Source: Novosphingopyxis sp. (lineage in GTDB: Bacteria; Pseudomonadota; Alphaproteobacteria; Sphingomonadales; Sphingomonadaceae). From it: DNA of 64,000 nt. This document shows positions 9,417 to 40,524 of the stretch, in pieces. Each line of letters starts with the position of its first letter. Within the stretch, counting starts at the first letter, position 1. The DNA lies in NCBI RefSeq assembly GCF_965218915.1, contig NZ_OZ244711.1, forward strand, positions 8,529-72,528, given 5' to 3'. A model generated the notes under the pieces. It was not told the origin of the DNA. It saw nothing but the letters and a program-made list of their open reading frames with translations, and did not search any database. The position numbers and the translations under genes were made by a program.

Positions 9417-9684
9417 GCCGATGGGTCACCAAGCCCTCTCCTCGGTCAGGACCCGCCCACGCCTGCCTCCTCATGGCCTGATCTGGCCGCAGGACGGCTG
9501 ACGCCTCGATCGCCTCTGCCGCAATGGCGGCCGGGCAACTTTCTTCCCCTGAGCTTCGCCCGCCCGCCCGCCATCTTCGCTCTGCTCCGGCTCGTGCCGA
9601 GTGCGTTGTCGATCGCCTGCGGCCTGTCGAATCGCCATCGGAGGCCGCGATGGGCGCGGTCCCGAGACAACAGGAGAGAGCACC
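9417..9684 (+). repeat. structured intergenic element, copy A (3' stem arm lost; RBS plus ATG retained)
   Basis: Near-identical to 40228-40524, including the 35-nt invariant box (9478-9512) and CAGGAGAGAGCACCATG. The DUF736 ORF expected after the ATG at 9685 is replaced by unrelated DNA. Confidence 0.7.
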
Positions 9685-9687
9685 ATG

Positions 9688-9854
9688 ACCGCCCCGCCCC
9701 GTGTGGCAAAAGCGCGTGCGGTCGCGAGGCCGATGCCAGATGCGGCCCTGGTGACCAGGACGCGAGCGGCGGTGGCGGGCTGGCTGGCGCTCAAGCGGTG
9801 CTCCTCGCCGGTGTTGGTCAAAATTTGGATCGAAGCTACGGCGCTCGCCGTCAC
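9688..9854 (-). pseudogene. short-chain dehydrogenase (SDR) 5' fragment truncated at the element junction
   Basis: The minus-strand translation ...ARVLVTRAASGIGLATARAFATRGGAV shows a Rossmann TGxxxGIG-type motif and stops being SDR-like exactly where element copy A begins. Divergent from the GntR gene. Confidence 0.45.
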
Positions 9855-9898
9855 GTGGTCGATGCCCGGCAGACAAGCCGCACCGAACCGGAGTAGGT

Positions 9899-10582
9899 TT
9901 GCTCATGCTCGCCGTTTCGGATTCAAGCACCGCCGCCGTCCAACATCTGGAGCACAATCCGCTCTACGAGCGCGTGTACCGGGAGCTCCGCCGCATGCTG
10001 ATGGAGGGCGCCTTCGCCCCGGGCGCGGAGCTGACGCTGCGCTCGCTGGCCGAGGGATTCGGTACCAGCGACATGCCGGTGCGAGACGCGGTCCGCCGCC
10101 TGATTTCGGAAGGTGCGCTGATCGGCCGCCCGAACCGGAGCCCGGTCGTGCGCCAGCTCACCCGCGTGCAATTCGAGGAGGTGCGGGACGTGCGCATGTT
10201 GATCGAGGGCGGGGCCACCGCCTCGGCGTGCGCCGCCTTATCTGCCGAGGGCTTGGCGAGGCTGCGCCAACTGCAACGTGACTTGAGCGGCGCGGAACCG
10301 TCTGATCTGGCCTTGCACCGCACCCTCAATCGGCGCTTCCACTTCACGATCTATGAGGCTTGCGCCATGCCGCTGCTGGTCTCGATGATCGAGACGCTGT
10401 GGCTGCAGGTCGGCCCGCTGTTCCGCAGCCTTTCCCTCCCGCTGCTCCGGCGAGACCTGCCGGACTATCATTGCCTGGCCGTAGACGCCCTGGCCGACCG
10501 CGACGCCGGAGCCGCTGCCGCCGCGATCCGCAACGATATCAGCGCCTCTGCAGCCGTCGTCCTGGCCAGCTCAGCGATCTGA
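9899..10582 (+). CDS. GntR family transcriptional regulator (FadR/FCD-type C-terminal domain)
   Basis: LYERVYRELRRMLMEGAFAPGAELTLRSLAEGFGTSDMPVRDAVRRLISEGAL is a GntR winged HTH. The helical C-terminal domain follows. The start may instead be ATG 9905. Confidence 0.85.
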   Translation: MLMLAVSDSSTAAVQHLEHNPLYERVYRELRRMLMEGAFAPGAELTLRSLAEGFGTSDMPVRDAVRRLISEGALIGRPNRSPVVRQLTRVQFEEVRDVRMLIEGGATASACAALSAEGLARLRQLQRDLSGAEPSDLALHRTLNRRFHFTIYEACAMPLLVSMIETLWLQVGPLFRSLSLPLLRRDLPDYHCLAVDALADRDAGAAAAAIRNDISASAAVVLASSAI

Positions 10583-11015
10583 GCGGCAATCCGGCCGGCG
10601 TGTGCGAGCGATCGGGAGATGCCGCGACAGTAAGGTTGTCCCAGTTCAATGGACACCGCAGCCTTCGCGAGGGTTTAGTCATGCCGAAGACCCGTTCACC
10701 GTATTGACCTAGCCAGAATGTTGACTCGATGCGGTCTGGGCGCGGCCCGTCTTACCTGACCCGCGAATTCGAGCCATCTGCGCAGGCGAGCCGGAATTGG
10801 CCTGTCTAGACGACGTGCAAAGGTCGCATTTTTGTGACCCATGGGCGTATATTCCGATTGCGTTCGATCAAATATCTAAGTTACGCTAAACGCTATTCGC
10901 AGGCATTAGGGCGAACAAAACCATATGTTTCCTCGATCGAGCCGAAAATGGAATGTGTATCGGAGGAGGGTGCTTCACCTCATTCGGCACTCAAGCAGAA
11001 CATTAGGGCGTTATC

Positions 11016-11933
11016 TTGGAGGCTATAATGGCTTCAACTTCGTTGGACGTCGGTGTGACGCCAGAAGAGTTCGCGCAACTGTCGCCCCATCCTCCGGTCT
11101 TCTCCACCGAGGCACAATTCTACCAATTTGCAGCGATTCAACGCTACAAATCGACCTCCAACACACACACTGCCCCGGCCACGCGCTGGCACCGGTTCTC
11201 ACTCCATCTCGCAGGATCGATGCTGGTTGAGAACACGTGCGATGGTCGCTGGGTGCGGCATTGGTCGGAGGGCGGAGAAAGTTACATCAGGCCCGCTGGC
11301 GTGCCTGTCACCCGGTCCCATAAAGGCCGGCCCGACTACCTCTCCGTCCACATTAATCCTAGCCTGGTGGACCGTGTGGCGGTCGAGGCCTTCGAGCGTG
11401 ACCCTTCGCATATCAACCTTATCGAGCGCTCTGGCGCCAAGGATCCCCTGCTGAACCAGTTAGGTCGACTGCTGCTGGCCGAGGCAGAGACGGTCCAGTC
11501 GAGCCTGCGGCTGATGGTCGAAACGTTAATCACCTCAATCTCAGTTCAGTTGTTGCGCGGCCATTCCAACTTGGCGCAGCAGGAAGCGCCGGGGCTTGGC
11601 GCCGAACTGTCCACCGCGAGGCTGCGACGGTGCATTGACTACATGCATGCTCATCTCGACGACGATCTGTCGTTGGTTCGCCTTGCGAAGGTGAGCGACC
11701 TCAGCCCTTCGCAATTCGCACGCGCCTTCAGGGTTGCGACAGGAGAACCGCCCCATCGTTACGTCATCCGGCTACGGATCGAACGGTCGTGCGAGCTGCT
11801 GGAGCACACCCAAATGCCGATCATCGAGATCGCTTTAAGATGTGGCTTCGAGCAACCCACACATTTTGCAACCACGTTCCGAAAAGCGCTCGGCCTCACG
11901 CCTCGCGCTTGGCGAGTCGCGCGCCGCCTCTGA
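11016..11933 (+). CDS. AraC family transcriptional regulator
   Basis: C-terminal dual HTH: LSLVRLAKVSDLSPSQFARAFRVATGEPPHRYVIRLRIERSCELLEHTQMPIIEIALRCGFEQPTHFATTFRKALGLTPRAWR. Confidence 0.85.
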   Translation: MEAIMASTSLDVGVTPEEFAQLSPHPPVFSTEAQFYQFAAIQRYKSTSNTHTAPATRWHRFSLHLAGSMLVENTCDGRWVRHWSEGGESYIRPAGVPVTRSHKGRPDYLSVHINPSLVDRVAVEAFERDPSHINLIERSGAKDPLLNQLGRLLLAEAETVQSSLRLMVETLITSISVQLLRGHSNLAQQEAPGLGAELSTARLRRCIDYMHAHLDDDLSLVRLAKVSDLSPSQFARAFRVATGEPPHRYVIRLRIERSCELLEHTQMPIIEIALRCGFEQPTHFATTFRKALGLTPRAWRVARRL

Positions 11934-11996
11934 AGCTGATACCGCACCCGTCAGCTAACCCGGTCTTGGAACGTGACGCCGACTGGCAGGATCGGA

Positions 11997-12968
11997 TCAT
12001 AGGTGGAGCACACACCGCCCAAGGTGGTCGCGACGCCGCATCTGCTTCACGGCCAAAGCAACTGCGGTCCAGGATGCTTCGACTTCCACGTGCGGCGTGA
12101 TCGATCGCGTGGCGACGAGAATGGACAATCGATTAAGTGCTTCCGCCGCTGGCTCCCGGCGGAGAGAGGCGGTCAACGAGAATCCGCGTAAGCGGCCCCT
12201 GCGTGCCGCAATTAGGTCGAGGACTCCAGTCGGGACAGATCGGGGGACAGACACGCTGCGCAGAACACAGACGCCGCCGGGCCGCAGAAGGTTTGCCGCG
12301 GTCTCAAGCGGGCTGTCGACATTTTTGTGGAGGATTATGTCGTACGGCCCGAACTCACTCGCGCCGGCCAAGTCGCCTACTATGACGTGGTCGGCCCCGT
12401 AGTCTTCAAGAAGCACTTCGTGCTCACGCGACGGCACTGCGGCCGAGACGCAGGCCCCAGATGCCCGCGCAAGTTGAACCGCGATCAGGCCGACATGATC
12501 CGAGGATGCCGTGATCAGCACGCGTTTGGCCGTCAGCAGACCGCCAGCCTGGCCGAGAGTGCGCAACGCCGTCAGTCCTGACGTCGGTAGCGCTGCAGCG
12601 TACGAAAAGCCGACCTTGTCCGGGATGGTCGCGAGTGCATTGGTAGAGACCGCGACGCGCTCCTTCAACGCGCCGGTGCGGACCAGCCCAAGCACCCGCG
12701 CGCCTGTAGCGGGACCCGAACCATCCTTAGCCGCCGTCTCGACGACACCCGCGAAGTCGTGCCCGAGCTGAGCTCCGTCCGGGGCTGATTGCACAGCCGA
12801 CTCAATCTCGTCGAGCGTGAGCGAAACCGAAGCCACACGGACGAGCGCCTCATTAACACCGGGGGTGGGCGCCGACACCTCACGCACAACGAGACAGCTC
12901 GACGCCGATCGGTCGACCAGCATTGCACGTATTGTGGGCGGAGTTGCCACTGACTTAGCACTTTCCAA
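11997..12968 (-). CDS. zinc-type alcohol dehydrogenase / quinone oxidoreductase-like (MDR superfamily) protein
   Basis: 323 aa with a GroES-like N-terminus (EALVRVASVSL...GHDFAGVV) and a Rossmann part (KRVLITASSDHVGLIAVQLARASGA). Confidence 0.75.
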   Translation of the reverse strand: MESAKSVATPPTIRAMLVDRSASSCLVVREVSAPTPGVNEALVRVASVSLTLDEIESAVQSAPDGAQLGHDFAGVVETAAKDGSGPATGARVLGLVRTGALKERVAVSTNALATIPDKVGFSYAAALPTSGLTALRTLGQAGGLLTAKRVLITASSDHVGLIAVQLARASGACVSAAVPSREHEVLLEDYGADHVIVGDLAGASEFGPYDIILHKNVDSPLETAANLLRPGGVCVLRSVSVPRSVPTGVLDLIAARRGRLRGFSLTASLRREPAAEALNRLSILVATRSITPHVEVEASWTAVALAVKQMRRRDHLGRCVLHL

Positions 12969-13106
12969 TCAGTCGTAGTCAGCATCGCTGAGGCTTGGAA
13001 GCTGCGTCCCTGATGCATGTCGATGTATGGTATAAAATTTATATTCCTGCCGTTTTCGCTATCCGAGCGCAGACTTCGTTTTCCGGGCGCGAAGGTTGGC
13101 CATGCC

Positions 13107-13144
13107 GGGGTAGGTTGAGGATACGTGTAAAAAGTGGTCACAAG
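13107..13144. repeat. Tn3-family left terminal inverted repeat
   Basis: GGGGTAGGTTGAGGATACGTGTAAAAAGTGGTCACAAG, the exact reverse complement of 16849-16886. Confidence 0.9.
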
Positions 13145-13806
13145 ATCTGAGGTTGAATGGCGCGGGCGCGTTTGGCGATCTCGCCGACGATGCCTCGGCT
13201 GGCCCGGTTGGCAATTTGCTTTTGGATCGCTCGGACGCTGAGGTCGGTGGACGTTGCGAGGGCCTCGATCTCATTGATGACGCGCTGCGGCGTGCCGGGC
13301 CGCCCAAGGTGCCGGCCACGCGACTCAGCTGCTCTCATGCCGGCGGTGACGCGCTCGCTGATGAGCGATGATTCCAGCTCGGCCATGGCGCCGATGATGG
13401 TGAACATCGCCCGGCCCATCGGGCTATCGGTGTCGATCTGATCCTGGACGCTCACGAAGCGAACCCCGAGGTGATCGAACTCTTCCAGCGCCGCCAGCAG
13501 GTGGCGCGTGCTGCGGGCGAAACGGTCGAATTTCCACACCAGCACGCAGTCGATCTCTTGGTTGCGCGCGGCGGTCATGAGGGCGTTGAGCTGGGGCCGG
13601 CCCTCTCTGCGCCCTGACACGGCCACGTCGCAGTAATCCTGCACGATTTCGAGGCCGGCGCGCGCGGCATAGCCGCGCAGGCCGTCATACTGCAGGTCCG
13701 GCTTCTGGTCGGCGGTCGAAACCCGGAGGTAGAGGGCGGTGCGGGTGCCCTGGTGCGCCCTGGGTCCCGGGCGCTTGCGTCCAGAAAGGTATTCCTTCGC
13801 GGACAC
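13138..13806 (-). CDS. tnpR: Tn3-family resolvase (serine recombinase)
   Basis: ALYLRVSTADQKPDLQ (catalytic Ser region), VWKFDRFARS, and a C-terminal HTH. Start set at in-frame GTG 13806. The ORF-track ATG at 13902 would overlap tnpA. Confidence 0.85.
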   Translation of the reverse strand: MSAKEYLSGRKRPGPRAHQGTRTALYLRVSTADQKPDLQYDGLRGYAARAGLEIVQDYCDVAVSGRREGRPQLNALMTAARNQEIDCVLVWKFDRFARSTRHLLAALEEFDHLGVRFVSVQDQIDTDSPMGRAMFTIIGAMAELESSLISERVTAGMRAAESRGRHLGRPGTPQRVINEIEALATSTDLSVRAIQKQIANRASRGIVGEIAKRARAIQPQIL

Positions 13807-13882
13807 TGGACGGCCCCCTGCTAACCCCTTCAAACAACATAGCCTGCCCCGCCGCTTCGGCGCACCCTTTTCCGGACACCTC

Positions 13883-16855
13883 ATGACCGCCATCGACCGC
13901 ACAGCCTACCCACGCCCGGAAGCAGGGCTGACCCGGGAGGAGTTGGGCGAGCGATATCACCTGAGCGAGCCCGAACTCGCCTTCATCCACGCGAGTGCCC
14001 GCCGCGACACCGGCCGATTGCTGCTGGCTATGCTGCTCAAGTCTCGACGGGATTTCGGGTGCTTTCCTGCGCCGGACGCAATCCATGCGGATACAGTCCA
14101 GCACCTGGCGGCGCAGCTTGGGGTTGCCTCGTGCCAGACCTTGGCGGACGAGATGCGCCGGACCAAGTCGCTCTACCGCTACCAAGCCGCGGTGCGGTCC
14201 TACCTGGGCCTCAAGCCGTATGATGACGGAGCGGGGCGCTTCGTCACAGGCACCGTGCTCGAAGCCGCCGAAACCATGAGCGATCCGGCCGACCTCATCA
14301 ACCGGGCCATCGAAGCCCTGCAAACAGCAGCGATCGACCTGCCCGCGTTCAGCACGCTCGACCGGCTGGTGAGCCGGCTGCGCGCCGAAGTCCATGGGCG
14401 CATGTACGACCGTGTTGCAGCCCGGGTCACGGCCGAGCACGCCGCTGTGCTGGATGCCTTGCTGATCAAGCTGACCGGTAGTGTCATCACCGGATTCAAC
14501 CGGCTGAAGCAGGCACCGGGGCCTGCGACCCCCAAGACGATCAGGCTCTGGACCGAGCGCCTTGAATGGCTGGATGGCCTGATCGATCCCGATCCGCTGT
14601 TGGATAGCATCGCGCACACCAAGCTGCGCCAGTTTGCTGCCGAAGCCGCTGCTTCGGAGGTGAGTGACCTGCTCGACATCGCCCAACCCGGCAAACGTGA
14701 CACCCTCCTGCTCGCCTTGCTGCGCCAAGTTCGCATGCGGTGCCGCGATGAGCTGGTCGAGATGATGTTGCGCCGCATCCGGCGCACCCAGGCTCTGGCC
14801 AAAGAACAGCTCGAGGAACTGCATGACCAGCATCGCGCGACCGAGGAAGACCTGATCGGCATCTTCGGCGAGGTGCTCGAGACAGAGCAGGCGCACGGGA
14901 CGGATGCCGCGTTCGGGCGCCAGGTCCGGGATCTCCTCTCCAAGCAGGGCGGCGTCGCCAAGCTGGCGCAGCAGTGCGAGACGGTGTCCGCCTGGCACCG
15001 CGGCAACGACCTTCCGCTGCTGTGGCCTATCCACGCCAAGCACCGCGTCCTGCTGTTCCGGCTGCTCGATCTCACAAACGTCCAGTCGGCAACGCAGGAT
15101 CGCAGCCTGCTGGACGCGCTGGCTGTCGTGAGCAGCCTTCGCCACACCCGCCGCGACGATGTGGACGGCGGCATCGACCTCGGGTTCGCGTCTCCGCGGT
15201 GGCAGGCGTTCGTCACCAGACGCCGGATCAGGCCGGGCGCCATCGACCGGCGTGCGCTTGAGGTGTGCGTGTTCGTCCACTTGGCCGACGCCCTGCAGAC
15301 CGGCGACCTGTTCATTGTCGGGGCCGAAACCTTCGCCGACTACCGCGCCCAGCTTCTGCCCTGGGCCGAGTGCGAAGCGCGGCTGCCCGCCTACTGCGCC
15401 GCACTCGGCATCCCCGAACGGGGCGAAGACTTCGCCGCCGCCCTGAAAGCGGAGCTCACGACGCTGGCCGCCACCGTCGATGCCGGCTTTCCGGCCAACA
15501 CCGAGTTCACCGTGGATGCCGAGGGGACGCCCCATCTGAAGCAGTTGGCGTCGACGGAGCAGCCAGCCGGGCTGCCGGAGTTCGAGGGCGAGATCCAAGC
15601 CCGCCTGGAAGAGCGCCATCTCCTCGACATCCTTAGGCGCACCGAGCACTGGTCGCGCTACACCCGCCACTTCGGGCCACCGTCCGGCGCCGACCCCAAG
15701 CTCGCCCAAGCCGTTCAGCGCTATTTGTTCACCGTGTTCGGCTACGGCTGCAATCTCGGCCCCAGCCAAACCGCCCGGCACGCGCCAGAGGTGGCCACGG
15801 CGCAGGCGCTGCGCCGGATCAACGCGCAGCACGTCACAGGGGCCAAGCTGGAAGCGGCAATGGTGGACGTCATCGACCAGTACGCTCGGTTCGCGCTGCC
15901 GCGGCACTGGGGCGGCGGACGCGCCGCCATTGCCGACGGCACGCATGTCAAACTGCGGGAAAACAACCTGCAGGGTTCCCGGCACATCCGTTATGGCGGC
16001 TATGGCGGCATCGCGTACCACCACGTCGCCGACAATTACATCGCGCTGTTCACCAGCTTCATCCCATGCGGGGTATGGGAAGCCGTCCACATCCTCGACG
16101 GCCTGCTGAAGAACAGGTCCACCATCCAGCCCGACACGCTTCACGCCGATACCCAGGGTCAGTCGGAACCCGTGTTCGGCCTGTGCCGGCTGCTCGGCAT
16201 CAAGCTGATGCCGCGTATGCGTGGCCTGGGCGACACGGTTCTGTACCGGCCGGCCAAGGAGACCCGCTACGCTCATATCGACGCCCTGTTCACCGGCGAG
16301 ATCGACTGGGATCTGATCGCCACCCATCAGCGGGACATGATCCAGGTCATGCTGTCCATCCAGGCCGGGCGGGTCATGCCCTCCATGCTGCTGCGCAAGC
16401 TTGGCACCTACAGCCGCCGCAGCCGGCTCTACCGCGCCTTCCGCGAACTTGGCCGCGTCGAGCGCACCCTGTTCCTGCTGAGCTTCTTCTCCAGCACCGA
16501 GGTCCGTCGGGTTATCCGCGCCGAAACCACCAAGGTCGAGGCCTACAACGACTTCCTGGACTGGGTGTCGTTCGGCGGCCCGGTGATCAAGAGCGGCGAC
16601 CCCGTCGAACAGGAGAAGCAGCTCAAATACGCCAGCCTGGTCGCCAACGCCGTCATGCTGTCCAATGTCGCGGACCTGACGCGCGTCCTGTCCGACATGG
16701 CTGCCGATGGACACCCGGTCACGCCCGCCCTGGCCGCTTCCCTCAGCCCCTACATGCGCCGCCACATTCTACGGTTCGGCCGATACGCGCTCGACATGGA
16801 CAGCCTGCCAGAGCCGCTCGACCCACAGCCGCTCCCCTTCGAGCAGGCCTTGTGA
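13883..16855 (+). CDS. tnpA: Tn3-family transposase
   Basis: About 990 aa starting MTAIDRTAYPRP. DUF4158-type N-terminus and a DDE Tn3 C-terminal region (..ADGTHVKLRENNL..YGGYGGIAYHHVADNYIALFTSFIPCGVWEAVHILDGL..HADTQGQSEPVFGLC..). Confidence 0.9.
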   Translation: MTAIDRTAYPRPEAGLTREELGERYHLSEPELAFIHASARRDTGRLLLAMLLKSRRDFGCFPAPDAIHADTVQHLAAQLGVASCQTLADEMRRTKSLYRYQAAVRSYLGLKPYDDGAGRFVTGTVLEAAETMSDPADLINRAIEALQTAAIDLPAFSTLDRLVSRLRAEVHGRMYDRVAARVTAEHAAVLDALLIKLTGSVITGFNRLKQAPGPATPKTIRLWTERLEWLDGLIDPDPLLDSIAHTKLRQFAAEAAASEVSDLLDIAQPGKRDTLLLALLRQVRMRCRDELVEMMLRRIRRTQALAKEQLEELHDQHRATEEDLIGIFGEVLETEQAHGTDAAFGRQVRDLLSKQGGVAKLAQQCETVSAWHRGNDLPLLWPIHAKHRVLLFRLLDLTNVQSATQDRSLLDALAVVSSLRHTRRDDVDGGIDLGFASPRWQAFVTRRRIRPGAIDRRALEVCVFVHLADALQTGDLFIVGAETFADYRAQLLPWAECEARLPAYCAALGIPERGEDFAAALKAELTTLAATVDAGFPANTEFTVDAEGTPHLKQLASTEQPAGLPEFEGEIQARLEERHLLDILRRTEHWSRYTRHFGPPSGADPKLAQAVQRYLFTVFGYGCNLGPSQTARHAPEVATAQALRRINAQHVTGAKLEAAMVDVIDQYARFALPRHWGGGRAAIADGTHVKLRENNLQGSRHIRYGGYGGIAYHHVADNYIALFTSFIPCGVWEAVHILDGLLKNRSTIQPDTLHADTQGQSEPVFGLCRLLGIKLMPRMRGLGDTVLYRPAKETRYAHIDALFTGEIDWDLIATHQRDMIQVMLSIQAGRVMPSMLLRKLGTYSRRSRLYRAFRELGRVERTLFLLSFFSSTEVRRVIRAETTKVEAYNDFLDWVSFGGPVIKSGDPVEQEKQLKYASLVANAVMLSNVADLTRVLSDMAADGHPVTPALAASLSPYMRRHILRFGRYALDMDSLPEPLDPQPLPFEQAL

Positions 16856-16886
16856 CCACTTTTTACACGTATCCTCAACCTACCCC
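16849..16886. repeat. Tn3-family right terminal inverted repeat
   Basis: CTTGTGACCACTTTTTACACGTATCCTCAACCTACCCC. Confidence 0.9.
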
Positions 16887-16891
16887 ATGCC

Positions 16892-17314
16892 GACCTGAAG
16901 AACCGCCTGCCTGCTGCGACGTGACGCGCGCGGCTCAGAGTCCATTCCGGATCGGTTGTTTGATGGGCCGGTCTGTAGCAAGATGTCGCTGGACGCGGCG
17001 TAGAGAACGATCCGACGATCTCGGCCGCTGCCCCGAGGTGTTTTGCCGGTTGCCTGTTCCGACTGAACCAGTGAGGAACAGCTCAACAACCCAACGCTTT
17101 GCCTTGTCGGTCAGCGACCGATCATTAGAAAGTCGGCAACCCCACTCGCCAGATACGTTCGGGCTAAGCCGGACCACTGCTTCGTCAACCCGCTTAGGGT
17201 CACGGCCGGTGATTACCATTTGCGCACCTTCGTCAATGGACCGTTGTGCAGCCGCAAGTTCTACGGCTGTGGATCCGCCGCCACGACGGCCGTTTTTCCC
17301 GCAAGACGCTGCAT
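16892..17314 (-). pseudogene. decayed SDR-family oxidoreductase, frameshifted and interrupted by the Tn3 element
   Basis: From ATG 17314, MQRLAGKTAVV is followed after a frame change by GGGSTAVELAAAQRSIDEGAQMVITGRDPKRVDEAV. This is an SDR N-terminus split over two frames. The remainder is degenerate and abuts the transposon. Confidence 0.4.
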
Positions 17315-17404
17315 GATCGAAAGACTTTCCGTCTGGGTGACAGCCGTCAACACGGTCGATCAAAGCAATCCGAATTGCGCTGCCCCTATGAAGCTCTTGG
17401 CGGC

Positions 17405-17926
17405 TCAACCCGTGTTAGGGAAGATGGGTCGAAGCATGCCCGATGCGACCTCGACCGGAGCCGCATCGATGAGTATGAAAGCCGTCACCGCCGGTTTTGT
17501 GCTGCGGTTCATCCAGGTGTGTGTGCAACCGCGCATGATCACGACATCTCCCGTCTTGAGATGCACGACTTCGCCGCTGTCCAGTTCGAGGTCGATCTCG
17601 CCCTGAAGTACCACGTCATAGTCGGTCGTCTGCGTGCGATGGGTAAAGCGGGGGTGGCCGGGTCCCCATTCGGTTATTCTGAACGCCGTGCCTTGCCCGC
17701 TGCCGACGTAGTTATAGTCGTTGTGGACCTTGATATAGCCCTTGCGCTGCGCCGGGTCGGCCCCCGGCGCATTGTCGACCGGCATCGTGTCCGTCGACCA
17801 TAGTTCGGATCCCGTGACGTTCTTTCCGATCCCCCGCGATGCGGCGGGAAGGCGTTCGTCGCTGATGACGACGCTGGCGCCGTTCTCGTCATTGGCGACG
17901 ACGATCCTACGAACTTCCATGGTCAT
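17405..17926 (-). CDS. cupin domain-containing protein
   Basis: 173 aa. HRTQTTDYDVVLQGEIDLELDSGEVVHLKTGDVVIMRGCTHTW is a cupin beta-barrel motif. Confidence 0.7.
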   Translation of the reverse strand: MTMEVRRIVVANDENGASVVISDERLPAASRGIGKNVTGSELWSTDTMPVDNAPGADPAQRKGYIKVHNDYNYVGSGQGTAFRITEWGPGHPRFTHRTQTTDYDVVLQGEIDLELDSGEVVHLKTGDVVIMRGCTHTWMNRSTKPAVTAFILIDAAPVEVASGMLRPIFPNTG

Positions 17927-20431: not shown

Positions 20432-20451
20432 CGGACCTCCTCGTTGCATTT

Positions 20452-30493: not shown

Positions 30494-30550
30494 TCGGCGC
30501 CGCCGCGGTGCATTGCGCCGAACGCTTCAGCCAGCCCGGGATGCTTTGCC

Positions 30551-32710: not shown

Positions 32711-32714
32711 CCAC

Positions 32715-33932: not shown

Positions 33933-33950
33933 ACTCCTGCCTATCGGGAA

Positions 33951-35150
33951 TCAGAATTGCAGCTGGCCGCGCACGGCGACCGCGTCGAATCCGCGTGGGG
34001 CGGACCCTCCATCGACGGTGGCGTGCTCGTATTGCAGTCCGAAGCGCAGAGCCTCGACTGGCCGCCAATTGACGATCGCCGACCAGATCCGCTCCTGCCC
34101 GCCGCGCACGTCCGCACTGTTGAGGTCCAGCGTCGAGTAGCGGGCGCCGACCTCCACCGAACCGAACTGCCCATTGCGCGGATCGAACCGTTCCGAGGGC
34201 TTCGGCGCGCCCCAGGCGCCATCGGCCGGCTTCCACTCGCGCGGCGTGCCGAGCACGGTGTAGGCCGCCTGCGCATACCAGCCGCTGAACGACAGCGTGC
34301 CGCCGCCCGCATCTTCGCGCCGGTTCAGCAGGATCGAATACCACTCGGCCTGCATCCAGAGCCGGCCGGTCGCGAACCCCACCTCCGGCCCGACCGAGCC
34401 GATGCTCCTGGCCCGGATTGACCCGGTCGAGAGCGGCGCCTTCACGTCGTCGATTTGCAGTTCCTGCTGCTCGGACAGCGAGTAGGCCGGAAGCGCACCC
34501 GCGGCGCGTGCCGGGCGGAACGCGTATTCGCCGGATGCGCCGAGGTGGACCAGAAACGCATCCGTCTTCCACGGCAACCCCGCCGCTCGGACGACGACCG
34601 CGCGCTGGTCGCCGTCCCGGCCCGGCCCGGCCCGGCCCGCTGTCAGCGCCGTCGCCACGTGGTAGCGCTTGCCCGAGGCCTGCACCTGCACCGCCTCGCG
34701 CTCGATCCCGGCGGCGATGCCGCGTGTCAGCGTGGAGACGCCGGCCCGTTCCAGGAATAGCGTGTCGCCAGCGCCCTGCATCGATTCCAGCCCGAAGCTC
34801 GGCTTGAACACGCCCACCGTGAAGGCGAAAGGCTTTAGGCCGGCATAGGTGACCTGTGCCTCGAACAGCTGCTGCTTGCCGCCCGGCGTCGATCCGAAGT
34901 CCCAAATCAGCCCGGCCTCGAGCTGGTCGGTGACCTTCAGCTTGGCTCCGGTACGCAGCCGCCGCGCATTAAACCCGGCAGCTTGCCCGCCCGGCCGGCT
35001 CTGGTCGAAGCCGCCCTCATCGAGCTGGTATAGGCCGTATGGGCTCAGGGCTACGCCGTCCCCGAGATTGACCGACAGGTCCGCCGCATGACCCGGCCCT
35101 GCCGAGGCCAGCAAGACGCCGGAGAGGAGCAGCGGGCGAGCGGCGCGCAT
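33951..35150 (-). CDS. OprO/OprP-type (anion-selective) porin
   Basis: 399 aa. Signal peptide ending HAADL, alternating beta-strand pattern, and a C-terminal aromatic residue (..VRGQLQF). Confidence 0.65.
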   Translation of the reverse strand: MRAARPLLLSGVLLASAGPGHAADLSVNLGDGVALSPYGLYQLDEGGFDQSRPGGQAAGFNARRLRTGAKLKVTDQLEAGLIWDFGSTPGGKQQLFEAQVTYAGLKPFAFTVGVFKPSFGLESMQGAGDTLFLERAGVSTLTRGIAAGIEREAVQVQASGKRYHVATALTAGRAGPGRDGDQRAVVVRAAGLPWKTDAFLVHLGASGEYAFRPARAAGALPAYSLSEQQELQIDDVKAPLSTGSIRARSIGSVGPEVGFATGRLWMQAEWYSILLNRREDAGGGTLSFSGWYAQAAYTVLGTPREWKPADGAWGAPKPSERFDPRNGQFGSVEVGARYSTLDLNSADVRGGQERIWSAIVNWRPVEALRFGLQYEHATVDGGSAPRGFDAVAVRGQLQF

Positions 35151-35154
35151 CCGC

Positions 35155-37437
35155 CTAATCCTGCCTGATCCGCACCGGCACGCCCTTGGACGCCGGCGTC
35201 TTGGACTCCCGGTCGTGGTACCAAAGCGGGATCAGCACGTTCATCTCCGGGTAGTAGCCGCCGAGGCAGCCGTCCGGCAGGTCGAACGGGGTCACCGCCA
35301 GGCCGGCCAGCTCGCGGTGCGCATCGTCGCCAGCGTCGCCCACCAGGCTGACCTGCTGGCCCTCCCGCAGGCCTTCGCGCCGCATGTCGTCCGGGTTGAT
35401 TAGCAGCACCATGCGCGAGCCCTCGATGCCGCGCAGCCGATCGTCGTGGCCGTAGATCGTCGTGTTGAACTGGTCGTTGGACCGCATGGTGATCAGATGG
35501 AACCGCCCCGGCGCGTCCCCCACGCCCAACGCGCTCAGCGTATCGGGCACGCTGAACTCGGCTCGCCCGCTCTCGGTCTTCCAGATGCGCTCGTGCGCCG
35601 CGTTGCCGCGGTAGAACCCGCCGGGCTGGAACATGCGCGCGCTGTAGTCGTGGAACTCCTCGGGGTAGGTCTGGGCGACCAGGTCGCGGACCACGGCGTA
35701 ATCGCCGGTCCAGCGGTCCCACTCCCATTTCGGGTGCGCCGGCAGCGTCGCCTTGGCCATGCCGGCCACGATCGCGAGCTCCGACAGCAGGTCCGGCGAG
35801 GCCGGCTTACGCTTGCCGATCGAGCCGTAGATGTGGCTGAAGCTGTCCTCGATGCTGACCGCCTGGCGCCCGCCGTCCTGCATGTCCTCCTCCGAACGTG
35901 CGAGGCACGGCAGCAGGTAGCCGGCGCGGCCCGGGAACAGGTGGCTGCGGTTCAGCTTGATGGCGATCGAGACGGTGAGCGCCAGCCCGGTCCAGGCACG
36001 CTCCATCGCGTCGCGGTCGGGGATCGCGCGGACGAAGTTGCCACCCAGGCCGATGAAGGCCTGCACGGAACCGTCGATCACGCCCTGGCAGGCGTCCACC
36101 GTGGTGAGGCCGTAGTCGCGCGGCGGCTGGAATTCGAACAGCTCGGCGAGCTTGTCCAGCGGAACCAGGTCGGGCTTTTCGGAGATGCCCACGGTGCGCT
36201 GACCCTGCACGTTGGAATGCCCGCGCACCGGCGAGATGCCGGCGCCCTGGCGGCCGATATTGCCGCGCAGCAGCAGTAGATTGACCAGCATGGCGATGCT
36301 CTGGGTGCCGTGCACGTGCTGGGTCAGGCCCATGCCGTAGACCCCGATCACTCGCTCGACCGCCACGTAGACCTCCGCCGCTTCTTGCAGTTCGGCGCGC
36401 CCGAGGCCGCAGACGCGCTCGATCTCCTCCCAGTCGGCGGCCTCCGCGGCGGCGATGAAAGCGTCGATCCCCTGCGTGTGCTGCTCGATGAACAGGCGGT
36501 CGAGCACGCCGGGCTGGCCGGCCTCGCGGCGCTGCCGGTCGACGGCGAGCACGTGCTTGCACAGGCCCATCAGAGCCGCGATATCTCCGCCGGGCCGGAC
36601 CTGCAGATACATGTGCGACAGGTCGGTCGCGTGCCCGGTCAGCATTTCCAGCGGGCTCTGCGGGTTGACGAACTTCTCCAGGCCCCGCTCGCGCACCGGA
36701 TTGAAGGTGATGATCTTGCAGCCGCGCCGCACCGCCTGCTGCAACGGATGCAGGAACCTCGGGCTGTTGGTGCCCGGGTTCTGGCCGAAGTAGAAGATGG
36801 CGTCGCAGTGCTCGAAATCCTCGAGCTGGCAGGTCCCGACCGGCGAACCGATCACCTTCTTCAACCCCACCGATGTGGTCTCGTGACACATGTTGGAGCT
36901 GTCGGGCAGGTTGTTGTGGCCATACATGCGCGCGAACAGGGCGAACAGGTACGAGGTCTCCAGCGACGCCTTGCCCGACGCGTAGAAGACCGCTGATTTC
37001 GGATCGACCGCGCGCAGCCCGGCCCCGATGCCGACGAACGCCTCCTCCCACGCGCAGGGCACGTAGTGGTCGGTCGCCGGGTCGTAGCGCAGCGGCGCCG
37101 TCAGCCGGCCCTGCATCTCGAGATCGTAGTCGTCCCAGCCGCGCAGCTCGCTGACGCTGTGCTTGGCGAAGAACGCCGGCTCGCACCGGTCGCGCGTCAG
37201 CTCCCAGATGGTCGACTTGGCGCCGTTCTCGCAAAATTCGAAGATGTGAGGCTCGGCCGGCTTGCCCCAGGCGCAGGAGGTGCACATGAAGCCCTCCGGC
37301 TTGTTCTGCCGCGACAGCGTCTCGAGCACCGCCGGGCTGGCGAGCTCGCGCGCGAACACCTTCGCCATCCCCTTGACCGACCCCCACCCGCCGGTCGCCC
37401 CCTCGTAGCCTTTAGTGTCGGTCGCCTTGTCGTTCAC
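35155..37437 (-). CDS. FdhF/YdeP-family molybdopterin oxidoreductase
   Basis: 760 aa. N-terminus GGWGSVKGMAKVFARE...NKPEGFMCTSCAWGKP is characteristic of the YdeP subfamily. Molybdopterin-binding blocks follow. Confidence 0.9.
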   Translation of the reverse strand: MNDKATDTKGYEGATGGWGSVKGMAKVFARELASPAVLETLSRQNKPEGFMCTSCAWGKPAEPHIFEFCENGAKSTIWELTRDRCEPAFFAKHSVSELRGWDDYDLEMQGRLTAPLRYDPATDHYVPCAWEEAFVGIGAGLRAVDPKSAVFYASGKASLETSYLFALFARMYGHNNLPDSSNMCHETTSVGLKKVIGSPVGTCQLEDFEHCDAIFYFGQNPGTNSPRFLHPLQQAVRRGCKIITFNPVRERGLEKFVNPQSPLEMLTGHATDLSHMYLQVRPGGDIAALMGLCKHVLAVDRQRREAGQPGVLDRLFIEQHTQGIDAFIAAAEAADWEEIERVCGLGRAELQEAAEVYVAVERVIGVYGMGLTQHVHGTQSIAMLVNLLLLRGNIGRQGAGISPVRGHSNVQGQRTVGISEKPDLVPLDKLAELFEFQPPRDYGLTTVDACQGVIDGSVQAFIGLGGNFVRAIPDRDAMERAWTGLALTVSIAIKLNRSHLFPGRAGYLLPCLARSEEDMQDGGRQAVSIEDSFSHIYGSIGKRKPASPDLLSELAIVAGMAKATLPAHPKWEWDRWTGDYAVVRDLVAQTYPEEFHDYSARMFQPGGFYRGNAAHERIWKTESGRAEFSVPDTLSALGVGDAPGRFHLITMRSNDQFNTTIYGHDDRLRGIEGSRMVLLINPDDMRREGLREGQQVSLVGDAGDDAHRELAGLAVTPFDLPDGCLGGYYPEMNVLIPLWYHDRESKTPASKGVPVRIRQD

Positions 37438-37506
37438 GTCGTTCTCTCCGGCCGGTGCTGGGTCTCGATTAACGCGCAGTCCGCCACCAGGACCGACCGG
37501 GTTACC

Positions 37507-39120
37507 TCAAGCGGTGATGCGGGCGGCGATATGATCGGCGACACGCAACGCGTTTGCGATGATGGTGAGCGTCGGATTGACCGCCCCAACCGACGGAAAG
37601 AAGCTCCCGTCGGTGACGTAGAGGTTGTCGAGTTCATGGGTCTTGCACCATCGATCCAAGACCGAAGTGATCGGGTCATCGCCGAATCGTATCGTCCCGG
37701 CCTGATGCGTTGTCGCGTCGTAACCAAAGGCGCGCCCGACGAACAGCGTGCGATCAAGAAGGTGAGTGGTCATGCCGAAGCCACTGACCTTATTCTGCAT
37801 CTTTTGGCGGAACAGTTTGTGCGCTTTCAGGTTCGTCTCGAACAAGTCAAGCCTCACGCCCCCATCCTTGTAGTAAATCCGGTTCTCCGGCTTCGGCAGA
37901 TCCTCCGAGAAGCACTCGAACGAGACGCAGTGATCGGCCATGACGTCAAACGGTGCTTCGGGCAGCCATTGCAAAAGATTGGGCAGGCCTTGGCCCCGGA
38001 TCATCACGCCATCCAGCTTGCCGAATAGCTGAAAGTTGCCAAGCGGAAACGGAAAGTCGTCGTCGCGATCCGGGTTGCCCAGGTAGTAGTCGTTCATCCC
38101 CATCGTTTTCTGATGGCGCGTCGGATTGGGTGTTCGGGAAATCCCCAGCACCAGGGTGATGTTCTGACGAAGGTAGTTGCGCCCGACCTGGCCCGACGCG
38201 TTCGCGAGACCGTTCGGATGGATGTCGCTGGTCGAGCGCAGCAACAGCAGCGCCGAGAGGAGTGCGCCGCAGGCAACGACGACGATGTCAGCGCGTGCCT
38301 CGAACGGCTCACCATCCTTGGTCCCGACCACGCCGGTGACGACCCGCCCGGTCGCATCGGTTACGAGCCGGTCGATGTCGGTGTTCGTCGACAACGTCAG
38401 GTTGGGCCAGTCGCGCAGCGCCGGGTCGACGCATATGACCTGCGCGTCGGCTTTCCCGTTGGTCGGGCATGGGAAGCCGTTGGTGAGTCCGCACTTGATG
38501 CAAGGTGAGCCAGGGGCCGCGTGGCCATGCTCGTCTTCGGTCAGGAGCACACCGGTCGGTAGATGGAAGGGATGCAGGCCTTCGCGAGAGAGACTGTCCG
38601 CGAGTTCCGCGATGTGCGGCTCATGGGAGACTGGCGGATAGGGGTATGGTGTGGTGGTCCACGGCTCCGTCGGGTCCTCCCCTCGCTGGCCGTGAACGTG
38701 ATAGAGGCCCTCGGCCTTCTGGTAGTAGGGCTCGAACTCGTCATATCCGACAGGCCAGGCTGGAGAGACCCCGTCGGGGTAGCGAATTTCGCTGAAATCC
38801 TGTTCGCGCAAGCGGAACAGCACACTTCCAAAGAACTTGCTGTTGCCACCCACGTAGGAATACATCAATGGCTGGACCTTGCTTCCGTCCTGGGCGGTCC
38901 ACGTTCGTTCGGCGACGTAATGGCCGTTGACGAAACGTTCACTTGCCCAGTTCTCCGGCTCTCTCTTTAGGTAGCATCCTCGTTCGATGAGCAAGATGCG
39001 CTTGCCGGTCTGCGCGAGCCGCCAAGCCATCCCTGCTCCGCCGGGTCCGGAGCCGACAATGATGATGTCATATCGTTCGCCGCCCATAGCCGCTCCTCTG
39101 ATGACGACGCTGGCAATCAA
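37507..39120 (-). CDS. GMC-family FAD-dependent oxidoreductase
   Basis: YDIIIVGSGPGGAGMAWRLAQTGKRILLIERG dinucleotide fold. C-terminal GTIRFGDDP...LYVTDGSFFPSVGAVNPTLTIIANALRVA. The likely start is the internal ATG at 39087. Confidence 0.85.
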   Translation of the reverse strand: MIASVVIRGAAMGGERYDIIIVGSGPGGAGMAWRLAQTGKRILLIERGCYLKREPENWASERFVNGHYVAERTWTAQDGSKVQPLMYSYVGGNSKFFGSVLFRLREQDFSEIRYPDGVSPAWPVGYDEFEPYYQKAEGLYHVHGQRGEDPTEPWTTTPYPYPPVSHEPHIAELADSLSREGLHPFHLPTGVLLTEDEHGHAAPGSPCIKCGLTNGFPCPTNGKADAQVICVDPALRDWPNLTLSTNTDIDRLVTDATGRVVTGVVGTKDGEPFEARADIVVVACGALLSALLLLRSTSDIHPNGLANASGQVGRNYLRQNITLVLGISRTPNPTRHQKTMGMNDYYLGNPDRDDDFPFPLGNFQLFGKLDGVMIRGQGLPNLLQWLPEAPFDVMADHCVSFECFSEDLPKPENRIYYKDGGVRLDLFETNLKAHKLFRQKMQNKVSGFGMTTHLLDRTLFVGRAFGYDATTHQAGTIRFGDDPITSVLDRWCKTHELDNLYVTDGSFFPSVGAVNPTLTIIANALRVADHIAARITA

Positions 39121-39267
39121 CGTCTGAATGCGACCAGTCCTTCACGCCTCGCCGGGTAAGCCGAGCTGGTCTGGTCGACATTCAATCTGAACAGGTAAGC
39201 TGCTGCGGAGTGCAGCGTCTTATGCAAATAGCACACAGCTTTTGATTTCTGGCCGTTACCGGTCGAG

Positions 39268-39474
39268 CCTCCTCATGGCCTGATCTGGCCGCAGGACGGC
39301 TGACGCCTCGATCGCCTCTGCCGCAATGGCGACCGGGTGGCTATTTTGCGCCGGCGCGAGTGCCGTTGCATCGCGAACCAAAATAGCCGCTCGGCCGCCA
39401 TCCTTCCGCTCCGCTTCGGCCTGCAAGCGCAGGTGCGTCGTCGATCGCCATCAGAGGCCGCGATGGGCGCGGTC
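39268..39474 (+). repeat. structured intergenic element, copy B (truncated at both ends)
   Basis: Contains the invariant box (39280-39314) and stem arms 39328-39347 / 39380-39399. Lacks the 5' leader and the RBS/ATG end. An internal direct-repeat deletion has removed TGCGGCCTG..GATCGCC. Confidence 0.65.
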
Positions 39475-39568
39475 ACCACCTGGAGCACTACGTGGCCGGC
39501 CTCGCACCCGCCCCATAAGCTGCAGCCGGCGTCTTGCTCGCTTTGCGTAACATGCTCATCATCCCGCC

Positions 39569-39905
39569 ATGCCGCACGTCATCGTCGAGTATTCCGCCAA
39601 TCTCGAGCCTGACCTGTGCCCGACGCGTCTGGTGCAGGCGCTTCCATCGAACCGCGCTGGACACTGGGGTATTCCCGATTGGGGGATTGCGGACGCGCGC
39701 GGAGCGACGTGACGTGTTCGTTGTCGCCGACGGGAACCCGGATAACGCATTCGTCGCCGTCCTAGCCCGCATCGGCGAAGGCCGCGAACCGTCGACCCGG
39801 CTCGCGGTCGCGCGCGCGCTGATGGCGACGCTGGAGGCCGAGACGGCCGCAGCCTTCGCGTCCCGCGGGCTCGGGCTGACCGTCGAGGTGCAGGAGATCG
39901 AGCGG
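39569..39905 (+). pseudogene. 5-carboxymethyl-2-hydroxymuconate isomerase-family gene with a +1 frameshift and a replaced 3' end
   Basis: MPHVIVEYSANLEPDL..RLVQAL (frame of ATG 39569) continues as HRTALDTGVFPIGGLRTRAERRDVFVVADGNPDNAFVAVLARIGEGR... in the frame of ORF 39534-40028. There is an extra base near 39643-39646, and family similarity ends about 39905. Confidence 0.55.
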
Positions 39906-40101
39906 GCAGAAGGTGGAGATGTATTCGAGGAGGCGTCCGAACGGGAACATCATCCGCTCGGTACTATCATCCTGCCGGACTTGACCGTTCACCCGGGTGG
40001 TGACGTGGAAGATGACGGCAATTGGTGATTCTGCTCCTAGCGGTATGCCGTAGCCGTGCTGATTAACGCCTTGGCGTGCCGTATGGGCTGACATGACCCC
40101 A

Positions 40102-40227
40102 CATGACCGGCAGATAGTTGTTCTGGAGCGGGCAGATTGGATGACCTGGCTCGAGCTGTCGCGGCCGGAAGCAGAACTGCTGCAACCCTTGCCCGCGGGC
40201 AGCCTGCATGTCGAACAGGTGCGGTAA
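40102..40227 (+). pseudogene. 3' fragment (last 41 codons) of a second, diverged SRAP peptidase gene
   Basis: HDRQIVVLERADWMTWLELSRPEAELLQPLPAGSLHVEQVR* aligns with the end of 8838-9416 (HDRQMVVLERADWLAWLELSRPEAELLKPLPAGSLHVEQVR*). DNA identity is roughly 80% by eye. Confidence 0.7.
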
Positions 40228-40524
40228 GCCGACACGGGGTCACCAAGCCCTCCCCTGCCGGTCAGGACACGCCCACGCTGCCTCCTCATGGCCTGATCTG
40301 GCCGCAGGACGGCTGACGCCTCGATCGACTTTGCCGCAATGGCGGCCGGGCAACTTTCTTCCCCTGCGCTGGCGCGCATTCCTCGCGATCCAAGAAAGCC
40401 GCCCGGCCGCCATCCTCCGCTCTGCTTCGGCCCACAAGCGGGTGCGTCGTCGATCGCCTGCGGCCTGCAGATCGCCATCGGAGGCCGCGATGGGCGCGGT
40501 CCCGAGACAACAGGAGAGAGCACC
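40228..40524 (+). repeat. structured intergenic element, copy C (most complete; reference copy)
   Basis: Invariant box 40293-40327, stem 40341-40360 / 40392-40411, second hairpin GCGGCCT/AGGCCGC, and RBS CAGGAGAGAGCACC before ATG 40525. Confidence 0.7.

Follow-up and report, generated by a model that had tools for sequence, protein, structure and literature searches.

Two diverged halves of a SRAP-hairpin-DUF736 backbone bracket an accessory block in the leading region of a conjugative plasmid

An accessory block in the leading region of a conjugative plasmid separates two diverged halves of a backbone that related plasmids carry uninterrupted. We consider that this block was probably assembled as a patchwork, through recombination between related plasmids at illegitimate joints, with the hairpins acting passively and with no dedicated capture site. 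The window, by which we mean the whole 64-kb stretch of DNA analyzed, is the leading (first-transferred) region of a ~88-kb plasmid encoding RepA, ParA, a TrwC-type relaxase, and a VirB-type secretion system. The predicted nick site on its minus strand matches the R388 oligonucleotide R(25+18) (PMC4176350), which makes minus the predicted transferred strand and places everything below position 51802 in the leading region.

The split layout reported by the initial annotation is real: a full SRAP gene and hairpin copy A on one side, and an SRAP 3′ fragment, copy C, and a DUF736 gene on the other, bracket the cargo (Table 1). No gene follows the ATG of copy A, which joint J1 connects to an SDR fragment. 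Over its residues 31-53, this fragment shares 78% identity with the N-terminal part of an intact SDR encoded on a related contig, L202. Copy A also carries an apical deletion of ~25 nt, missed previously, that is absent from the corresponding copy in another relative, L198. On the right, relic B matches only part of the hairpin model, so both of its ends have been cut, and these ends constitute joints J2 and J3. Relic B has lost a further 21 nt internally and belongs to the D type, with 93% identity to copy D. The debris behind it contains a CHMI (hpaF-like) pseudogene (Pfam CHMI, E 1e-23) and, on the opposite strand, a piece labeled FAH-like from a reading of its translation. At joint J4 this FAH fragment meets SRAP, near codon 145; positions 40093-40227 match SRAP profile positions 164-207 (E 6.5e-4), with the homology probably starting slightly earlier, at ~40085.

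Table 1. Coordinates of features in the window. Hairpin copies were located by a profile scan (model length 272); / marks the predicted nick.
Feature	Position	Strand	Remarks
Hairpin copy E	6887-7129	+	Profile scan; directly 5′ of SLOG/DUF2493 (YAcAr) gene
SLOG/DUF2493 (YAcAr) gene	7102-8073		Pfam YAcAr, E 3.8e-29
Full-length SRAP (SOS-response-associated peptidase) gene	8838-9416	+	Pfam SRAP, E 6.5e-27
Hairpin copy A	9417-9687 (profile match 9445-9687)	+	Ends on ribosome-binding site and ATG
SDR (short-chain dehydrogenase) N-terminal fragment	9688-9854	-	Cut abruptly at 9688 (joint J1)
Accessory block proper	9688-39266	mixed gene orientation	29.6 kb
Intact divergent GntR gene	9899-10582		Partner of SDR fragment
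Tn3-family element, transposase only	13107-16886	+	43-nt inverted repeats
Hairpin relic B	39266-39474	+	Profile scan; model positions 29-246 only
Gene debris	39475-40084		Plus: frameshifted CHMI pseudogene; minus: FAH-like fragment
SRAP 3′ fragment	40085-40227	+	Last ~41-47 codons; J4 at 5′ end
Hairpin copy C, intact	40228-40527 (profile match 40262-40527)	+	Ends at ATG of DUF736
DUF736 gene 1	40525-40836	+	Profile match E 7e-36; exact protein on L201/L202
Serine recombinase gene	43637		
Hairpin copy D	44863-45132	+	Profile scan
DUF736 gene 2	45130-45444	+	Directly behind copy D
Predicted oriT nick region	51795-51826	-	Inverted repeat, then GGTCT/ATAACCC; adjoins TrwC-type relaxase operon

Including relic B and the debris, 30.4 kb of accessory DNA (9688-40084) lies between the halves. 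The block encodes GntR and AraC regulators, ADH, cupin, CMD, an OEP-HlyD-MFS efflux system, a kinase, a cyoABCD-like oxidase, a glycosidase, a bicupin, a porin O/P, a Mo-oxidoreductase, and a GMC oxidoreductase. The Tn3-family element, present in a second, identical copy on contig C5, entered the block later by simple insertion. Its 5-bp target duplication (ATGCC) is intact, and this copy therefore caused no adjacent deletion.

The intact order proposed by the initial annotation exists elsewhere. SRAP, hairpin, and DUF736 are uninterrupted in the relatives L007, L108, L109, and L191, and occur with a spacer in L008/L049; the close relatives are all metagenome contigs, several of them from one sample. 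L191, which matches both halves of the window, reads SLOG-orf-SRAP-hairpin-DUF736-ParDE-ScpA-like, while L109 reads DUF932-like-ParB-Toprim-SLOG-SRAP-hairpin-DUF736-ParA. The uninterrupted SLOG-SRAP-hairpin-DUF736 order in L007, L108, L109, and L191 indicates that the backbone of the window was split.

The two halves appear, from their sequences, to come from different plasmid lineages. Their shared SRAP 3′ block (9291-9421 against 40102-40232) is 87% identical over 131 nt, slightly above the ~80% given earlier, and the longer comparison (9291-9687 against 40102-40527) yields 84% over 428 nt. Because the halves are no closer to each other than either is to L108, L007, or L191 (84-87%), they are not a recent tandem duplication, in agreement with the initial annotation. 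Exact runs of at least 35 nt between them occur in the hairpin only (50, 35, and 57 nt), the longest in the SRAP part being 23 nt. The full-length SRAP gene is itself a mosaic relative to L108, with its 5′ third 95% identical and the rest ~85%; identity drops near 9037 (10/199 against 58/380 mismatches, Fisher p = 2e-4). The C-side fragment, too, reaches no more than 87% identity with L108, so that L108 may itself be the recombinant, and no direction can be assigned to this exchange.

Each side of the block has its own closest relatives. L198 is 96.9% identical over window positions 8820-11985 and contains the exact joint J1. L201/L202 are 98% identical over 40011-41046 and have J4 in common with the window; they match the copy C side at 100% over 40161-40610 (450 nt) and at ~99.7% over 40161-40760. 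The two sides thus have separate recent histories, and the sharing of J1 and J4 suggests that the joints are old and inherited. Along the right backbone, identity is patchy (100%, then 91-96%, then 70-80%). Upstream of 40011, L201/L202 carry other cargo (GntR2 and an intact SDR2). This boundary falls within the debris, ~250 nt upstream of the element, such that only the last part of the debris is held in common. Cargo follows an intact DUF736 gene in L108, and in L078 it lies upstream of a differently truncated SRAP gene, with a Tn3-family transposon inside DUF736. The expectation that different cargos would sit at the same element boundaries is therefore not borne out, and the relatives lend no support to dedicated capture at the edges of the element; the pattern named as contrary to it, an uninterrupted element with cargo placed elsewhere, is found in part. 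What stands of the proposed recurrent recombination point is a ~1-kb SRAP-hairpin-DUF736 neighborhood that is recurrently rearranged.

In our preferred reading, an ancestral backbone of SLOG, orf, SRAP, hairpin, DUF736, and a ScpA-like trio, contiguous in relatives, would have been split by an insert that is not one mobile unit but a patchwork closed by at least five joints (J1, J2, J3, one within the CHMI/FAH debris, and J4). These joints, which appear illegitimate, would have been reassorted among a population of related plasmids by exchanges combining homologous recombination on one side, within conserved backbone, with non-homologous joining on the other, which would explain why the SRAP 3′ end and hairpin are present twice in diverged form. 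The route could be homology-facilitated illegitimate recombination, a mechanism familiar from experiments on natural transformation in which a homologous anchor is combined with a non-homologous joint, or it could be cointegration and subsequent deletion, which would give the same picture. Consistent with the former, as read from the sequence, each side of the block pairs a shift in backbone identity (within SRAP near 9037; behind DUF736 near 41046) with an abrupt joint to unrelated DNA, and the anchor region is partly duplicated. The hairpins may matter passively: they contain the longest perfectly identical tracts that diverged plasmids have in common, they are structure-prone, and elsewhere they are specific targets of IS110-family elements.

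Three of the four outer joints (J1, J2, and J3) nevertheless lie at or inside hairpin copies, a higher share than a purely passive role would readily lead one to expect. J1 is at the base of hairpin A, on its ATG, and J2 and J3 are near the base of B. These positions raise the possibility that the hairpin or its immediate flanks are an active, recurrent point of recombination and cargo capture: for example, the folded transferred strand might be cut, or might cause template switching, during conjugation, and new DNA would then be joined preferentially at hairpin bases. Disturbed copies are present at ~6% of loci, with interruptions or partial duplications of the hairpin in several other genomes, and L151 carries a near-identical half-hairpin, an inserted GNAT gene, and then a full hairpin, the footprint expected from template switching. 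Against this, cargo begins elsewhere in L108, L201/L202, and L078, J4 is not at a hairpin, and the 13-16% divergence of the duplicated halves means that the case in the window was not created in place. On the evidence of this single window, we regard active capture as unlikely.

Somewhat less likely still is that the joints were made by mobile elements of the IS110 or Tn3 family, or by a serine or tyrosine recombinase, with ends or sites that later disappeared or that are not recognizable because they are so short. IS110-family elements do enter the hairpin in other genomes (L137, L171, L194/L195), in two distant hosts at exactly the same position (GAG/GCC). Of the 12 IS110-type genes found across 2.4 Mb of loci, 3 are located within hairpins, and hairpins account for 1.26% of this DNA. 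This resembles the homing of IS110/IS1111-family insertion sequences to conserved structured repeats such as REP elements and integron attC sites. A Tn3-family element is, moreover, active in this genome, and a serine recombinase gene lies nearby. However, this genome contains no IS110-type gene, and none of J1-J4 falls on the equivalent of the IS110 target position, 40483/40484. IS110/IS1111 homing does not explain the joints here. The Tn3-family copy retains its target duplication, and a search tolerating up to 3 mismatches revealed no additional Tn3 inverted repeat. Neither transposon ends nor recombinase sites were found at the joints, which have no words of at least 9 nt in common except one chance 9-mer.

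Copies A and C do form direct repeats around the cargo, and L151 demonstrates that in-place partial duplication occurs in this hairpin family, but duplication of the SRAP 3′ end and hairpin upon cargo arrival, followed by divergence, is very improbable here: neither copy is closer to its counterpart than to other plasmids, and the C side and A side find their near-identical partners in different contigs (L201/L202 and L198, at 97% for the latter). An assembly artefact from repeated hairpins, at which short-read graphs and Logan contigs do break (contig C4 also lacks a terminal overlap), is more improbable still, as J2, J3, and J4 are spanned with no difference by Logan contigs from two public runs, J1 and J4 each recur in independent long-read metagenome contigs, and the hairpin copies are distinguishable (64-93% identity).

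SXT/R391 ICEs carry their variable regions at hotspots HS1-HS5. As in those hotspots and in mosaic plasmid regions, accessory genes here lie within a syntenic transfer and establishment backbone, different cargo occupies the same general neighborhood, and patchy identity reflects frequent homologous exchange. In contrast to SXT/R391, however, cargo in these plasmids is not at fixed intergenic sites, core genes are damaged in the window (SRAP truncated, one DUF736 lost), and the joints appear illegitimate and lie partly inside a repeated hairpin.

The element itself is a conserved family of long imperfect hairpins of ~270 nt, followed by genes for DUF736, SLOG/DUF2493, or, in rhizobia, ArdC. 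Folding is more stable on the minus strand in 68 of 71 homologues, with an excess over shuffles of -7.7 against -4.6 kcal/mol, although this asymmetry is partly an effect of base composition. In a Watson-Crick-only fold, single mismatches comprise 46 C.A, which become wobble pairs on the minus strand, and 8 G.T. The modeled folds thus suggest a hairpin adapted to folding on the strand opposite that of its downstream genes, here the predicted transferred strand.

These properties recall Frpo/ssi sequences, the single-stranded-DNA promoters that F and ColIb-P9-type plasmids carry in their leading regions (PMC11541004; PMC9849209; source study Masai and Arai 1997, as cited in PMC11541004). In both cases leading-region genes are immediately preceded by several dispersed copies of a long imperfect hairpin of ~250-330 nt, the transferred strand is the template of all these genes, and folding is favored on that strand. 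Unlike Frpo, the hairpins here have no recognizable sigma-70-type hexamers (-35/-10) and reside in GC-rich alphaproteobacteria; no sequence similarity to the F leading region was found, nor, in the literature consulted, any link of Frpo-type repeats to cargo joints or IS110 targeting. Given the base-composition effect and the lack of such hexamers, we infer only a putative role as an Frpo-like single-strand promoter, a priming signal, or both.

A 2026 preprint on noncoding clusters describes a motif upstream of DUF736 genes, cluster #378,112, which it treats as a candidate RNA of unknown role (10.64898/2026.10.21.760802). Our hairpin is likewise noncoding, conserved, and covarying and immediately precedes DUF736 genes; judged by this description, it probably belongs to the same element family. 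In contrast to a reading as RNA, the mismatch pattern observed here favors the antisense, transferred DNA strand.

The SRAP-hairpin-DUF736 backbone of this contig is split by a block of accessory genes. Pfam confirmed the complete SRAP gene, the 3′ SRAP fragment and the first DUF736 gene, and a profile built from the element, an imperfect hairpin of ~270 nt, recovered five copies in the window (table). Copy B is truncated at both ends, covering only model positions 29-246. Copy A gives way abruptly to an SDR N-terminus in reverse complement, followed by 29.6 kb of accessory genes in mixed orientation, while the stretch from copy B to the SRAP fragment consists of gene debris: a frameshifted CHMI pseudogene and a fragment labeled FAH-like from reading its translation. 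The initial annotation had described this architecture, and the uninterrupted order it reconstructed is indeed found in metagenomic and MAG relatives. Two of these (L108 and L007) carry SRAP-hairpin-DUF736 without interruption, a third (L109) has the order DUF932-like-ParB-Toprim-SLOG-SRAP-hairpin-DUF736-ParA, and a fourth (L191), with SLOG-orf-SRAP-hairpin-DUF736-ParDE-ScpA-like, matches both window halves. Flanking core genes are damaged in the window: SRAP is cut short at the right joint, and copy A has lost the gene that should follow it.

Features of the window, cargo ends in related loci (L-numbers) and hairpin insertions in other genomes
Feature	Coordinates	Strand	Remarks
Copy E	6887-7129	plus	before SLOG; profile scan
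SRAP	8838-9416	plus	complete
Copy A	9445-9687	plus	ends on its ATG at 9687; profile scan
Copy B	39266-39474	plus	ends are joints J2 and J3
3′ SRAP fragment	~40085-40227	plus	begins at joint J4
Copy C	40262-40527	plus	before DUF736 gene 1; profile scan
DUF736 gene 1	40525-40836	plus	
Copy D	44863-45132	plus	before DUF736 gene 2; profile scan
ParA	46382	plus	right of cargo region
RepA_C replication gene	47571	plus	right of cargo region
Predicted nick region	51826-51795	minus	inverted repeat then GGTCT/ATAACCC; just upstream of relaxase operon
TrwC-type relaxase	52164-55985	plus	
Coupling protein, VirB11/B9/B8 genes		minus	right of cargo region
Leading-region backbone genes		plus	DUF932-like, 706-aa ParB-like, DUF7146-Toprim, SLOG/YAcAr, SRAP, two DUF736, serine recombinase, ParA, RepA
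Cargo end, window and L198	9687/9688		joint J1, after the ATG of copy A
Cargo end, L201/L202	40011		
Cargo end, L108			after intact DUF736
Cargo end, L078			inside SRAP; Tn3-family transposon in DUF736
IS110-family insertions at GAG/GCC	L137:7533-9999; L194:9373-10908; L195:942-1213		transposases 70% identical

The two halves come from two lineages rather than from a fresh duplication, as had been proposed. The duplicated stretch, including the element, is 84% identical over 428 nt. The shared SRAP 3′ block is 87% identical between the A side and the C side, where about 80% had been claimed, and each version is 84-87% identical to L108, L007 and L191. From 7357 to ~9036, the left half and L108 are 95% identical, and ~85% beyond; mismatch counts differ across this ~9036/9037 shift (10/199 vs 58/380, p = 2e-4), which places a recombination breakpoint inside SRAP. 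Either lineage could be the recombinant there. The right backbone is 100% identical to the metagenomic relative L201 over 40161-40610 and ~99% to 40760, falling to 91-96% and then to 70-80% in the recombinase gene. On sequence comparison, such patchwork identity is the expected product of frequent homologous exchange among related plasmids. Gene conversion between copies A and C was rejected as the source of 57 identical nt at their 3′ ends; the same tract is present in L108, indicating conservation instead.

The joints themselves have been inherited and reassorted among related plasmids. One relative, L198, matches window 8820-11985 at 96.9% identity, with J1 reproduced exactly. Its copy A is an intact hairpin, so the ~25-nt apical deletion in the window's copy A is recent. 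L198 is without window 6301-8819, and at L198:8315-9487 this deletion joins the N-terminal DUF7146 portion of the Toprim protein to the C-terminal portion of SRAP in a single 390-aa frame. Over window 40011-41046, L201 and L202 (a 97.7-kb contig) match at 98% identity and include J4, the joint between the FAH-like fragment and SRAP; upstream of 40011 they carry other DNA, including a different GntR gene and an intact SDR gene. PLSDB appears to hold no annotated close relative, as no near match to SRAP plus copy A was found among its plasmids and all SRAP protein matches there are at most 52% identical. A family-wide search with SRAP plus copy A found hairpin copies in 31/300 genomes, with no close relative among them, and the cargo's left end had no match in the family-wide genome search.

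Between the window halves, exact tracts of at least 35 nt are confined to the hairpin (50, 35 and 57 nt), those in SRAP reaching at most 23 nt, and with more distant relatives nearly all tracts of at least 25 nt fall in the hairpin or DUF736. These are therefore the expected starting points for homologous exchange when plasmids have diverged. Each side of the cargo also pairs an identity shift with an abrupt joint: on the left, the drop at ~9037 from 95% to 85% identity with L108 is paired with J1, and on the right, the segment identical to L201 declines to 91-96% after ~40900, with homology lost abruptly at 40011. Such a pairing is characteristic of homology-facilitated illegitimate recombination, or else of cointegration with subsequent deletions. 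The arrangement is most likely an ordinary multi-step plasmid mosaic whose joints happen to involve a conserved hairpin repeat of the transferred strand. It would have arisen by exchange in homologous backbone combined with illegitimate joints, the hairpin repeat taking a passive part as an island of identity here and as an IS110 target in other genomes. Though fairly ordinary, such a mosaic is instructive. Its hairpin repeat supplies identity tracts for exchange between diverged plasmids and is also a specific insertion-sequence target.

The initial annotation had proposed that the element acts as a recurrent point of cargo capture. This interpretation found partial support. The hairpin is tied to rearrangement by its identity tracts, by IS110 insertions and by a partial duplication in another locus, but a strict hotspot is contradicted by the cargo ends, which differ among relatives, with no position shared by different cargos among them. 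In contrast to fixed hotspots of conjugative elements, whose intergenic position is constant and whose core genes are intact, the cargo ends here vary in position and the core genes flanking the window's cargo are damaged. A dedicated capture mechanism is unlikely.

The contig (G000:C4, 87.8 kb, of which the window covers 8529-72528) represents a conjugative plasmid and not an ICE, given its ParA, RepA_C, TrwC-type relaxase, coupling protein and VirB genes. By sequence comparison, its predicted nick region bears a close likeness to the R388 substrate GCACCGAAAGGTGCGTATTGTCT/ATAGCCC (/ denotes the nick) used in PMC4176350. From this homology, the minus strand is predicted to be the transferred strand and everything below 51802 the leading region, in which plus-strand backbone genes have the incoming strand as template. 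The leading region is the first DNA met by the recipient and is dense in establishment and anti-defence genes, and the entry of accessory genes there bears on plasmid evolution; the cargo insertion moves SLOG, Toprim and the ParB-like module ~30 kb farther from the predicted nick site. In the F plasmid leading region (50000-68000), genes for a DNA methylase, a DUF932 protein and a 652-aa ParB-family protein are oriented like the tra genes, a set that parallels the methylase, DUF932-like and ParB-like genes in window 376-8073.

All five hairpin copies and their genes lie on the plus strand at coordinates below 51802. The gene that follows the element is DUF736 for 95 copies and SLOG for ~9, and three rhizobial loci have ArdC-like genes in this position. 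Matches to the 3′ part of the model also lie directly upstream of ~312-aa genes (L160:8156-8300, L186:6830-6974, L187:1299-1411), whose N-termini we take to resemble the anti-restriction protein ArdC. Rfam has no family matching any part of the window at gathering thresholds, and relaxing the cutoff to E 5 around copy C returned noise alone. A 2026 preprint (10.64898/2026.10.21.760802) lists, as an uncharacterised RNA, a covarying motif located before DUF736 genes.

Copy C folds with -103 kcal/mol on the minus strand (z -7.8) and -88 on the plus strand (z -5.5), and the minus strand is the more stable in 68/71 homologues, base composition explaining -4.6 of the -7.7 kcal/mol excess. A strand-neutral test of mismatches is clearer: in Watson-Crick-only folds, single mismatches comprise 46 C.A on the plus strand (G.T wobble on the minus) vs 8 G.T, the sequences being related and the counts not independent. 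Together with the predicted transferred strand, this bias is consistent with the element being an Frpo-like ssDNA promoter or priming signal. Like Frpo-type single-strand promoters (PMC11541004) and ssi, it lies in the leading region upstream of genes templated by the transferred strand, and the predicted transferred strand of the window plasmid forms a long imperfect hairpin. Unlike these, it does not resemble the F leading region in sequence: neither nhmmer (E up to 10) nor blastn against F plasmid 50000-68000 gave a meaningful match. A consensus scan of 40100-40600 for -35/-10 elements found none, nor did the arms, inspected by eye, contain a convincing pair; alphaproteobacterial promoters fit this consensus poorly.

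A survey of 188 loci (2.40 Mb) recovered 124 hairpin copies, distributed over 105 loci, and 12 IS110-family transposase genes. Three of these genes are located within hairpin copies, which account for 1.26% of the sequence (binomial estimate ~4e-4). Insertions in a Rhizobiales genome (L137) and an Acetobacteraceae-like contig (L194/L195) occupy the identical position GAG/GCC, within …CCATCGAG/GCCGCGATGG…. The conserved 3′ non-coding part of the L137 and L194 elements contains CGTCATCGAGA, resembling the left target flank plus the element's first base, which may be a guide segment. In a Sphingomonas genome, the hairpin before DUF736 is interrupted in its apical loop by a different IS110-family element (L171:8354-10002; ends TATGTGGACGCCCC…GGGGCGTCCACAT). 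Between the split-hairpin halves of L137 (7760-9954), the IS110 gene is accompanied by a second full hairpin with its own DUF736 (9297-9864); the insertion sequence may have carried this module along, or one event may be nested in another. At L194:9545-9559, a run of N with an apparent internal duplication of model positions 98-182 may reflect misassembly of the palindrome. The window architecture recurs on a small scale at L151:737-2599, as a partial duplication around an inserted gene: a half-hairpin (covering model positions 12-160, with ~95% identity to the full copy), a GNAT acetyltransferase gene, a full hairpin and DUF736.

A bolder reading, to which we give little credence, is that these probable single-strand-promoter hairpins are also favored sites of cargo gain and exchange. 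Folded on single-stranded DNA, they would block synthesis or be cleaved, leading to template switches and illegitimate joints at their bases; copies A and B and the L151 half-copy would be footprints, and IS110 elements would have adapted to target this conserved hairpin. If so, single-strand promoters would double as cargo-acquisition sites, and early-expression signals would shape where accessory genes accumulate in conjugative elements.

Transposon-borne cargo was rejected: the cargo limits have neither inverted repeats nor a target duplication, no further Tn3 inverted repeats were found, the genome contains no IS110-type gene, and the joint segments matched none of the other sequences compared. 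Site-specific, integron-like capture was likewise rejected, with no repeated attachment sites at the cargo boundaries and no common motif; the only word of at least 9 nt common to the joints and the stretch preceding the serine recombinase gene is a single 9-mer attributable to chance. A cut across a cruciform at copy B was set aside because the two ends of B are ~15 nt out of register in the stem.

The suggested search for alternative joints, carried out on assembler contigs, yielded none that is trustworthy. Logan contigs from two runs read through J2, J3 and J4 with no differences, and the one weak alternative, joining 39301 to 40439, has a depth of 6.6 against ~200 and a shorter side of 27 nt. 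In the two public runs containing the plasmid, summed contig depth climbs from ~200 to 900-1600 across the conserved hairpin boxes and DUF736 start (39286-39366, 40258-40419, 40501-40581), so the sample includes several other replicons with the element.

Only one internal element of the cargo has transposon ends, a 3,780-bp Tn3-family element (window 13107-16886; 3.78 kb) with a transposase, no resolvase, 43-nt inverted repeats and an intact 5-bp target duplication. A second copy, 100% identical, is found on another contig (G000:C5:10441-14220). The intact duplication and this second copy mark it as a later, simple insertion, and two identical copies on different contigs point to recent transposition.
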